55,949 bases of DNA from a virus. Its lineage: Duplodnaviria > Heunggongvirae > Uroviricota > Caudoviricetes. Below, piece by piece: positions 27,862-28,450 of the stretch. The notes beneath the pieces are model-generated. The model was given only the letters and a program-made list of their open reading frames with translations. It had not been told where the DNA came from and ran no database searches. Every line of letters begins with the position of its first letter. The first letter of the stretch is position 1. The translations under genes were made by a program, and so were the position numbers. Location: IMG/VR virus record IMGVR_UViG_3300045988_152564, one strand, 5' to 3'.

Positions 27862-28284
27862 ATGTCATTCTTTTCTACGTTAAAAACAGCTTTGTCTTTG
27901 AAGGAGAAACTTGCTGCTACTGGTGTTCTTGTTCTGATTTGCGCACTTGTTGGTGCTGGGTTTGCATGGGAACGTCATCAGCTAAAGCAAGCCATAGAGA
28001 AAATTGGCAGTCTTGATCAGGCTGTTAAGGAACGTGATAAGTCAATAATGGATCTTAACCAGACCATTGAGACGATGAACAAAGCAGAGCAACATTTTCA
28101 CAGCCAGGAAGTGAAAAATGAATCAGAACAAGCCAAGTATGCTGACAGGCAAATGGAACGAAAAGCTGAAGTTCAGAAACAACTGGTTGCGGCGGGTAAT
28201 GTTCGCCAGCGCATTCCTGCTGACACTCAGCGGTTGCTCCGGGAGTCGATCAGCGAATTTAACGCCGACGCCGACAAAGGTTAA
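27862..28284 (+). CDS. i-spanin-like protein (Rz-type): N-terminal TM helix plus coiled coil
   Basis: AGGAGGA RBS then ATG; TM segment AATGVLVLICALVGAGFAW followed by charged helical region. Confidence 0.55.
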   Translation: MSFFSTLKTALSLKEKLAATGVLVLICALVGAGFAWERHQLKQAIEKIGSLDQAVKERDKSIMDLNQTIETMNKAEQHFHSQEVKNESEQAKYADRQMERKAEVQKQLVAAGNVRQRIPADTQRLLRESISEFNADADKG

Positions 28285-28450
28285 CCACCCTGCCCCCAAA
28301 AGTGCATTTATGTGCAGAATGCCAGAGTTTAGCAGTGAATATTTTGATGATCTGCCAGCGTATATCCTCGATACAGAAACGATGCTGAAGGGGATTAACA
28401 GGAAGAATCGCAACGTTAATGATTACAACCGTGCTATCAGCGGTAACTAA
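28199..28450 (+). CDS. o-spanin-like lipoprotein (Rz1-type) overlapping the 3' end of the i-spanin gene in another frame
   Basis: Lipobox LLTLSGC then Pro-rich mature region; a TTG at ~28187 would give a signal peptide with an RR n-region. Confidence 0.55.
   Translation: MFASAFLLTLSGCSGSRSANLTPTPTKVNHPAPKSAFMCRMPEFSSEYFDDLPAYILDTETMLKGINRKNRNVNDYNRAISGN

Follow-up and report, generated by a model that had tools for sequence, protein, structure and literature searches.

An overlapped spanin-like gene pair, ppfA and mlp, on a bacteriophage P1-like phage-plasmid

Identity of the Gene Pair

The window analyzed here, a stretch of 55,949 nucleotides, is a P1-like phage-plasmid, and two overlapping open reading frames on its + strand (27862 to 28450) are bacteriophage P1 ppfA and mlp, which very probably constitute a two-component overlapped spanin (probability roughly 85%). 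The overlapped pair is real, but it is already catalogued for P1 and is ordinary. Its region shares 99.5% identity with P1 and 100% identity with phage vB_EcoM-813R1. At the protein level, PpfA (27862 to 28284) is 100% identical to P1 PpfA, and Mlp (28118 to 28450) is 98% identical to P1 Mlp, differing by the substitutions V32A, located in the signal peptide, and M91K. The neighbors are also those of P1: uhr-hrdC-dmt flanks the pair on one side, and on the other is the RepA origin, which agrees with the original placement between rdgC/dmt and that origin. Unlike P1, which has upfA alone downstream, the element has both a gene of the Gp49/Sf6 gp66 family (28462 to 28821, same strand; Pfam PF13876, 1.1e-33) and a UpfA-like frame that is only 51% identical to P1 UpfA.

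As a discovery the pair is of small worth, since the spanin catalogue has listed it since 2007 and 2018, and the RefSeq record of P1, where ppfA is annotated, labels mlp 'Rz-like spanin'. Table S1 of Kongari et al. (2018) lists the P1 genes as 'ovl', with gp064 as OIS and gp063 as OOS. Bednarek et al. (2022) call ppfA and mlp the P1 spanin genes, credit Summer et al. (2007) with identifying the pair, and state that its function is not verified. Gene callers still overlook or shorten mlp in many P1-like records. A correct lysis-gene inventory is of some value, because P1 serves as a standard tool for transduction and cloning and because resistance genes are spread by P1-like phage-plasmids. Labels for i-spanin and o-spanin are swapped in one paper.

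PpfA Has the Topology of an i-Spanin

The i-spanin gene ppfA (27862 to 28284, + strand), assigned as such through its identity with P1, phrog_89, and Kongari et al. (2018), runs from ATG 27862 to a TAA at 28282 to 28284 and encodes 140 amino acids. A Shine-Dalgarno sequence, AGGAGG (27851 to 27856), lies 5 nt upstream of the ATG and is conserved in relatives. Kyte-Doolittle hydropathy over a 19-residue window reached its maximum, 2.35, at residues 17 to 35 (LAATGVLVLICALVGAGFA), with no second hydrophobic window, placing a single N-terminal transmembrane helix at residues 17 to 36 (27910 to 27969). The net charge of +2 over the N-terminal 16 residues fits an N-in/C-out orientation, and the predicted periplasmic part contains 36% charged residues, one Pro, and no Cys. 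An AF2 model (mean pLDDT 70) consisted of a helix spanning residues 13 to 110, within which the transmembrane segment falls, a break at residues 111 to 119, and a second helix at residues 120 to 137. Hydropathy and the model establish PpfA as a predicted type II inner-membrane protein with one transmembrane helix and a long periplasmic domain that is alpha-helical, in line with the membrane-anchored coiled-coil protein first proposed for 27862 to 28284.

PpfA matched phrog_89, annotated 'Rz-like spanin', over almost its full length (5.1e-25). No match to Pfam Phage_lysis (lambda Rz) was found even at E ≤ 1. Comparison with P2 LysB returned a BLASTP E value of 58 and an hhalign probability of 0.9%, the membrane helix alone being aligned without significance, and the score against TIGR03495, the P2 LysB family, was 18.2 bits, under the curated cut-off of 92.75. 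A Foldseek search of BFVD with the PpfA model gave no match at E ≤ 0.001, as expected for a query that is a single long helix. Scrutiny of 1.84 billion representative proteins with HMMER retrieved 30 matches, of which the full-length ones all belonged to P1-like elements, the remainder being coiled-coil noise. On the HMMER result, the PpfA family is narrow and offers no tie to a conventional lysis cassette.

Mlp Is a Predicted Lipoprotein Related to P2 LysC

The frame of mlp (28118 to 28450, + strand; a precursor of 110 amino acids per RefSeq) is +1 relative to ppfA and is open from 28115 to the TAA at 28448 to 28450. Its designation as the o-spanin gene draws on P1 identity, PHROG matches, Kongari et al. 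(2018), and the comparison with P2 LysC. A lipobox, L-S-G-C, occurs at 28226 to 28237 (pattern [LVI][ASTVI][GAS]C), with the codon of the Cys to be lipid-modified at 28235 to 28237. With the lipobox LTLSG/C and Ser at position +2, Mlp should receive a lipid and be sorted to the outer membrane, its mature N terminus being C-S-G. Relatives have C-S-G or C-S-Q at this point and no Asp at +2, and the lipobox is kept in 8/8 lineages as LLTL[SN][GA]C or, in lineage L015, LLILSAC. For P1 Mlp, Kongari et al. (2018) gave a LipoP cleavage site after residue 39. Mature Mlp is 71 amino acids long and has six Pro (8.5%), five of them within its first 21 residues (C1-P21); the lipobox of the Pro-rich lipoprotein originally proposed stands (LSG/C, Ser at +2), while "Pro-rich" is only moderately true of it.

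The sole periplasmic Cys of the pair is Cys27 of mature Mlp (28313 to 28315, + strand), which is invariant across lineages and aligns with a Cys of P2 LysC. In 507/528 two-component spanin systems, a periplasmic Cys is on record in one subunit or the other, with a homodimer disulfide in most; the present pair has such a Cys in Mlp Cys27 alone, a candidate for that disulfide.

Mlp matched two PHROG families annotated 'Rz-like spanin', phrog_30284 (6.3e-58) and phrog_456 (6.6e-6). Scores against NF038368, the P2 LysC family (15 to 16 bits, E = 0.012 to 0.023), and PF23793 (11.8 bits) were both under the cut-off of 27. Direct comparison of Mlp with P2 LysC gave 37% identity over 68 residues (BLASTP E = 4e-8) and an hhalign probability of 87% (E = 3.8e-6), and a tblastn search of the window with P2 LysC had 28187 to 28387 as its sole match region. 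The aligned segment takes in signal peptide, lipobox region, and Pro-rich stretch, as well as a conserved C-x-M-P motif. Despite the sub-cut-off scores of the family models, these alignments identify Mlp as a distant homolog of the P2 o-spanin LysC.

Overlap and Candidate Start Codons of mlp

mlp starts inside ppfA and ends 166 nt past the ppfA stop, an overlapped arrangement. Possible starts are ATG 28118, ATG 28139, TTG 28187, and ATG 28199, and the overlap with ppfA is 167 nt from ATG 28118 (the RefSeq choice), 98 nt from TTG 28187, and 86 nt from ATG 28199. The two genes were correctly predicted to occupy different frames, but the overlap of ~90 nt proposed with them fits the two proximal starts only.

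The distal start, ATG 28118, is preceded at a distance of 8 nt by a Shine-Dalgarno sequence, AGGA (28106 to 28109, + strand), which overlies the invariant PpfA residues Q82-E83. AGGA or AGGAGG followed 8 to 9 nt downstream by ATG is present in 8/8 lineages. Among the proximal starts, TTG 28187 (28187 to 28189), recognized by comparative alignment, would give a 16-residue signal peptide, (M)RRVMFASAFLLTLSG. It aligns with ATG in the ~60% identical relatives, with TTG in L009, and with Met1 of P2 LysC, and a proximal NTG is kept in 7/8 lineages, being absent in L014. The second proximal ATG (28199 to 28201) would give a 12-residue signal without a charged n-region and occurs in P1-type sequences only; relatives have CTT, CTG, or CTC at position 28199. 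In the N-terminal extension between the distal and proximal starts (28121 to 28186), codon position 2 varies in 19/23 codons, so there is no amino-acid constraint in the mlp frame there.

The mature lipoprotein is the same whichever candidate start is used. Initiation at ATG 28118 would precede it with an unusually long, strongly basic signal of 38 to 39 residues, compared with the normal 16-residue signal from the proximal NTG. We consider it an unlikely, speculative scenario that mlp is made from both starts, with precursors whose maturation might proceed at different rates and thereby adjust the timing of o-spanin activation, loosely resembling the dual-start motif of holins and antiholins.

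Purifying Selection Acts on Both Frames

Variable columns were counted in an alignment with three relatives ~60% identical, and the comparison of constraint spanned relatives 33 to 63% identical. Because matches to Mlp in protein databases were mostly miscalled fragments, its open reading frames were re-derived from the DNA of loci found with PpfA. In the mlp-only part, variable columns were distributed as 14/9/37 over mlp codon positions 1, 2, and 3 (nominal p = 1.4e-5). The stretch 28187 to 28284 (+ strand), which encodes the PpfA C terminus in one frame and, in the other, the signal peptide of Mlp plus the beginning of the mature protein, was variable in 20% of columns, compared with 51% in the ppfA-only part and 37% in the mlp-only part, and had no codon periodicity. 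Dual-frame constraint begins at 28187. The lipoprotein open reading frame and its lipobox are kept in 8/8 lineages, even in one where PpfA identity falls to 33%, and the FMC motif and the INRKNxNVNxYNR tail of Mlp are conserved in all lineages. These alignments show purifying selection acting on the ppfA and mlp frames alike. Both genes were also reported to belong to the set of 21 genes that are most conserved in P1-like phage-plasmids.

The same comparison bears on whether ppfA could be the only gene here, with mlp an untranslated chance frame lying within a coding region rich in lysine and glutamate and extending past it. Such a frame would account for the many annotations that omit mlp or call fragments of 46 to 52 amino acids, and for the unconstrained N-terminal extension (28121 to 28186), and basic, stop-free +1 frames would be expected from composition in E/K/Q-rich genes. 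Past the ppfA stop, however, substitutions favor mlp position 3, a pattern that already contradicts this explanation, and variation is suppressed in 28187 to 28284. The lineage-wide conservation of the lipobox, FMC motif, and tail and the homology of Mlp to P2 LysC likewise argue against it. Furthermore, there is no untranslated gap between mlp and the next gene, since the Gp49-family gene, also found at this place in relatives, begins 12 nt past the mlp stop (11 bases between). We therefore regard the chance-frame explanation as extremely improbable and treat mlp as a gene alongside ppfA.

The Pair Follows Baseplate Genes and Is Expressed Late in P1

Directly upstream of the pair, on the same strand, lie upfC, encoding a PAAR spike tip (26741 to 27025; Pfam PAAR, 1.1e-5), and upfB (26977 to 27822), together occupying 26741 to 27822 and supported by PHROG matches; cryo-EM of P1 has placed UpfC and UpfB at the tail spike. 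In published P1vir RNA-seq data, in which two overlapping frames are inseparable and which derive from P1vir rather than the present element, log fold changes of upfC, upfB, ppfA, mlp, and upfA rose from 4.1 to 5.6 at 10 min to 10.5 to 11.2 at 30 min, kinetics that resemble those of lyz, lydA, lydB, and gene 23. By contrast, values of 7.4 to 9.5 had already been reached at 10 min by repA, parA, uhr, hrdC, and dmt, which flank the cluster. Between 10 and 30 min, the rise in log units was 5.7 to 6.4 for ppfA/mlp and 5.3 to 7.6 for lyz and lydA/B, compared with 2.0 to 2.8 for the flanking early and plasmid genes. Although first described as part of a plasmid-maintenance neighborhood, a misleading label, the pair is outside the plasmid-maintenance module, being downstream of the baseplate genes upfC/upfB and expressed late.

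We searched for a late promoter using the motif AAGTGAYTT-N4-TANNNT, derived from LPlyz and matches in the window. No Lpa-type motif was found on the + strand between 26300 and 27870, upstream of upfC and ppfA, and a generic scan for sigma-70 promoters and terminators performed no better than on shuffled sequence. Late kinetics without a recognizable Lpa-type promoter would imply an undescribed form of late promoter or another route of activation.

tblastn searches of the window with P1 Lyz and LydA-E and P2 Y, K, and LysA returned nothing at E < 0.1, so there is no lysis cassette within these 56 kb, in keeping with the original remark that the pair is far from any recognizable holin or endolysin. 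P1 is organized likewise, with lyz and lydA/B unlinked to the pair.

Proposed Role in Lysis

By analogy with lambda Rz/Rz1, the ppfA/mlp pair would rupture the outer membrane as infection ends. PpfA and Mlp would bind each other across the periplasm through their C-terminal parts, with the peptidoglycan mesh holding the complex apart. Once the holin LydA had released the SAR endolysin Lyz and the cell wall had been degraded, the complexes would collapse, and fusion of the inner membrane with the outer membrane would complete lysis. On the same model, the conserved single Cys of mature Mlp would probably form a stabilizing homodimer disulfide.

This reading, consistent with the original prediction of an Rz/Rz1-type overlapped spanin, agrees with Kongari et al. 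(2018), the topology and lipobox, the PHROG matches, the homology to LysC, and the pattern of selection. An alternative is that PpfA and Mlp are genuine envelope proteins with a job other than outer-membrane disruption, such as setting the timing of lysis, the function first ascribed to P2 lysB/lysC, superinfection exclusion or another part in lysogenic conversion with expression by the plasmid prophage, or a task connected with the spike-tip proteins UpfC/UpfB, whose genes are co-transcribed with the pair. In CRISPRi knock-down experiments both genes were non-essential for plaquing (efficiency of plating 0.19 to 0.24 for mlp and 1.2 to 1.3 for ppfA), a result that is compatible with spanins being dispensable in laboratory conditions, yet gives no support for a lysis role, and which could also be cited for another function, as could the unverified status noted by Bednarek et al. 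(2022). Pointing the same way are the sigma-70 promoters P1ppfA and P2ppfA predicted just upstream in the P1 record, the note in that record 'possibly involved in regulation of lysis (by homology)', the descriptions of lysB/lysC in the P2 record as 'affects timing of lysis' and 'regulation of lysis', and the location in a same-strand cluster with baseplate genes, remote from lyz and lydA/B. However, a type II helical membrane protein combined with an outer-membrane lipoprotein encoded out of frame from the 3' end of its gene is the defining mark of a two-component spanin, and P2 LysC, the homolog of Mlp, is now classed as an o-spanin. Moreover, expression is late rather than prophage-like (4 to 5.6 at 10 min vs. 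7 to 9.5 for plasmid and early genes), and unlinked spanin genes exist, such as T4 pseT.3/pseT.2, which complement lambda Rz/Rz1. A different envelope function is thus unlikely, if less remote than a chance frame, and we favor the two-component spanin.

Comparison with Characterized Spanins

P2 LysB/LysC is the prototype of the overlapped spanin architecture, and ppfA/mlp resembles it in that the o-spanin gene begins within the 3' part of the i-spanin gene and continues beyond the stop codon of the latter, with an overlap of 146 nt in P2 lysB/lysC and 86 to 167 nt in ppfA/mlp. The resemblance does not extend to the i-spanin, PpfA being without significant similarity to LysB, or to genomic location: lysB/lysC are in a lysis cassette directly after the holin gene Y, the endolysin gene K, and lysA, whereas tens of kilobases separate the P1-type pair from lyz and lydA/B.

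With lambda Rz/Rz1, the pair shares a type II inner-membrane helical protein, a small outer-membrane lipoprotein encoded in the +1 frame, and a proposed mechanism of membrane fusion after wall degradation. In contrast to Rz1, which is wholly embedded in Rz, mlp extends past ppfA, and there is no sequence similarity, as reflected in the lack of a Pfam Phage_lysis match. Mature Rz1 is ~40 amino acids long and far richer in Pro than mature Mlp. Rz has two periplasmic Cys and PpfA none, while Rz1 and Mlp have one each.

T4 PseT.3/PseT.2, whose function as spanins has been demonstrated by complementation of lambda Rz/Rz1, resembles the present pair in its cysteines, with none in the i-spanin and all in the o-spanin. 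The T4 genes also lie away from the T4 endolysin and holin genes, but they are separated from one another, whereas ppfA and mlp overlap.

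An overlapped spanin pair on a P1-like phage-plasmid

Positions 27000-29700 were 99.5% identical to bacteriophage P1 (NC_005856, 62551-64804, reverse strand) and 100% identical to Escherichia phage vB_EcoM-813R1. Together with P1-like phage matches across the remaining window, in reverse orientation from ~37 kb of P1 (sit) onwards, this identifies the element as a P1-like phage-plasmid (Punavirus). Both ORFs of interest are present in the P1 record, where ppfA is described as 'possible periplasmic function' and mlp as 'membrane lipoprotein precursor', with 'Rz-like spanin' as its RefSeq product. 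They are bordered on one side by opposite-strand uhr-hrdC(rdgC)-dmt and on the other by upfA-oriR-repA-parAB, which share their strand. PpfA was 100% identical to its P1 counterpart and Mlp 98%, differing by M91K and by V32A, which falls within the signal peptide.

All elements of the overlapped i-spanin/o-spanin pair in the original prediction were found in the sequence, at the coordinates given there. On the plus strand, ppfA runs from ATG 27862, preceded by AGGAGG at 5 nt, to TAA 28284, and the +1 frame of mlp is open from 28115 to TAA 28450, with a lipobox (L-S-G-C) at 28226-28237 and, at +2, a Ser that agrees with sorting to the outer membrane. In PpfA, a single hydrophobic segment (residues 17-36, Kyte-Doolittle 2.35) comes after an N-terminus of net charge +2, and the 104 residues beyond it form a Cys-free domain in which 36% of residues are charged; an AlphaFold2 model (19 homologues, mean pLDDT 70) placed helices at residues 13-110 and 120-137 around a break at 111-119. 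Mature Mlp comprises 71 residues with one further Cys, and its description as Pro-rich was only moderately apt (6 Pro, 5 of these in C1-P21). Depending on the mlp start, the genes overlap by 86 nt (ATG 28199), 98 nt (TTG 28187), or 167 nt (annotated ATG 28118).

The finding is correct and, given the P1 literature, already known. Kongari et al. 2018 entered P1 as an overlapped two-component spanin. In that entry the i-spanin is gp064, a 140-aa protein with 0 periplasmic Cys ('one in TMD'), and the o-spanin is gp063, a 110-aa precursor for which LipoP places cleavage at residue 39, leaving a mature form of 71 aa with 1 Cys. Bednarek et al. (PMC9025707) gave the labels the other way round, with ppfA as o-spanin and mlp as i-spanin, which the sequences contradict. 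Both genes were non-essential in a genome-wide CRISPRi screen and both were among the 21 most conserved genes in a survey of P1-like phage-plasmids.

Purifying selection acts on both reading frames

Relatives were sought using PpfA, since mlp is usually missed or truncated by gene callers. These comprised elements of Cronobacter, Salmonella, and Klebsiella aerogenes (PpfA 59-63% identical, the ~60% relatives), three lineages besides these, and a distant one in which PpfA is only 33% identical. All shared the synteny dmt-rdgC-uhr / upfC-upfB-ppfA, and every one had an overlapped +1 ORF of 109-110 codons retaining the lipobox LLTL[SN][GA]C (LLILSAC in one), AFMC, DDLP-Y, and the tail INRKN-NVN-YNR.

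Variable columns were counted per codon position in a four-sequence DNA alignment with three relatives. In ppfA-only sequence (27862-28117) counts at ppfA positions 1/2/3 were 36/31/64 (51% of columns variable), and in mlp-only sequence (28285-28447) those at mlp positions were 14/9/37 (37% variable; p = 1.4e-5, nominal because the three relatives are non-independent). Across the shared stretch (28187-28284) variability fell to 20% and periodicity in the ppfA frame was absent (5/6/9). From these codon-position patterns and variable fractions, we infer that purifying selection acts on the ppfA and mlp frames alike. As far as sequence data allow, this answers the concern, raised with the original prediction, that the lipoprotein frame might not be translated, and supports the frame as real.

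In public data, mlp is left unannotated in ON470617 and OP279344 and is called as fragments of 46-52 aa on metagenomic contigs.

The start codon of mlp

In the same alignment, 45% of columns at 28118-28186 were variable, like ppfA-only sequence, and the variation lay mostly at ppfA position 3, i.e., mlp position 2 (19/23 codons), indicating that the 22-residue N-extension of annotated Mlp is free of amino-acid constraint. Constraint began at ~28187, where the codon is TTG in P1 and the distant lineage and ATG in the ~60% relatives, and where Met1 of P2 LysC aligns. This onset argues for a signal peptide of 16 residues, (M)RRVMFASAFLLTLSG. Kongari et al. 2018 had flagged the annotated form 'Too long signal sequence'. 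Counting against a proximal start, the distal ATG was preceded by AGGA or AGGAGG at 8-9 nt in 8/8 lineages, one of which (L014) no longer carries the proximal start codon. This distal Shine-Dalgarno, within 28103-28120, doubles as the codons of invariant PpfA Q82-E83 (CAG GAR), so its conservation can be assigned to neither frame alone, and the distal ATG of the ~60% relatives is shifted by one codon relative to P1. The mature lipoprotein is identical whichever candidate start is used.

Mlp is related to the P2 o-spanin LysC

PpfA matched the PHROG profile phrog_89 (5e-25) and Mlp matched phrog_30284 (6e-58) and phrog_456 (7e-6), all labelled 'Rz-like spanin'. P2 LysC was 37% identical to Mlp over 68 residues (E = 4e-8; hhalign probability 87%, E = 3.8e-6), and a six-frame LysC search of the whole window gave 28187-28387 as its sole match. 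P2 lysB/lysC share the overlapped layout of ppfA/mlp, with an overlap of 146 nt. Similarity of PpfA to P2 LysB or lambda Rz was not detectable, and PpfA and Mlp both scored under the cut-offs curated for the LysB and LysC family models and were hence left outside those families. Scanning 1.84 billion representative proteins with PpfA returned 30 matches, the full-length ones exclusively from P1-like elements; by this measure, the PpfA family is narrow.

The pair lies in a cluster with late kinetics in P1

The pair had been placed inside a plasmid-maintenance neighbourhood and at a distance from any recognisable holin or endolysin. The distance was borne out: homologues of P1 Lyz and LydA-E and of P2 Y, K, and LysA were absent from the whole window, and on the P1 map lyz/lyd genes lie at ~20-31 kb and ppfA/mlp at 63.4-63.9 kb. 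Membership of the maintenance module was not, as the pair sits midway along a cluster of same-strand genes, upfC-upfB-ppfA-mlp-(gp49-like)-upfA, whose P1 members show late kinetics. Pfam and PHROG matches supported upfC and upfB, whose products in the P1 cryo-EM structure are the PAAR spike tip (UpfC) and a 'tripod' attached to it (UpfB). In published P1vir RNA-seq, the five P1 cluster genes had log fold changes of 4.1-5.6 at 10 min that climbed to 10.5-11.2 by 30 min, matching lyz, lydA, lydB, and genes 22 and 23, unlike repA, parA, parB, uhr, hrdC, and dmt, which reached 7.4-9.5 by 10 min. Hence, the cluster acts like a late transcription unit that happens to border oriR, outside the replication/partition module. 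Neither motif scanning nor the P1 annotation gave a late promoter of the Lpa type ahead of the cluster, including intergenic 26644-26740 upstream of upfC, where annotation is limited to the divergent Pdmt promoter with its C1 operator. For the cluster, the P1 record gives nothing beyond predicted sigma-70 promoters.

Beyond the topology and lipidation signals, both-frame selection, LysC homology, and late expression in P1 documented here or in cited data, the lambda Rz/Rz1 model suggests how the pair would act. Inner-membrane PpfA and outer-membrane Mlp would bind via their periplasmic ends, restrained by peptidoglycan until the LydA holin and Lyz SAR endolysin destroy the wall, whereupon the complexes would collapse and both membranes fuse. 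At least one periplasmic Cys is reported in 507/528 two-component spanins, a rule that the lone invariant Cys of mature Mlp fits.

Other features of the window

The longest upfB ORF (ATG 26977) overlaps the upfC end by 49 nt (26977-27025), as in the P1 annotation. This P1-type start may be over-extended, as upfB begins further downstream in the vB_EcoM-813R1 record and 10 nt past the upfC stop in the ~60% relatives. Between mlp and oriR, 28462-29293 differs from P1; a published survey described repA-upfA as variable among P1-like phage-plasmids. This segment holds a Gp49 / Sf6 gp66 family gene (28462-28821, Pfam 1.1e-33), which P1 lacks here but the relatives from Cronobacter and Salmonella carry, followed by an UpfA-like frame (28886-29272) with 51% identity to P1 UpfA. 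An in-frame stop at 29036-29038 divides this frame in two, giving ORFs of 48 codons and 74 codons.

The sole other strong candidate in a crude six-frame lipobox scan of the window was a 276-codon ORF (21159-20329, minus strand) with the N-terminus MKKTLISAAIILGSLCLTGC then Asp; this Asp at +2 would predict an inner-membrane-retained lipoprotein. Window positions 1-25000 matched 558 phage records, including many from Stx-converting or other lambdoid phages at 90-95% identity, versus only 50 at the other end, so a widely shared segment, be it a cargo gene or mobile element, must lie within the first 25 kb.
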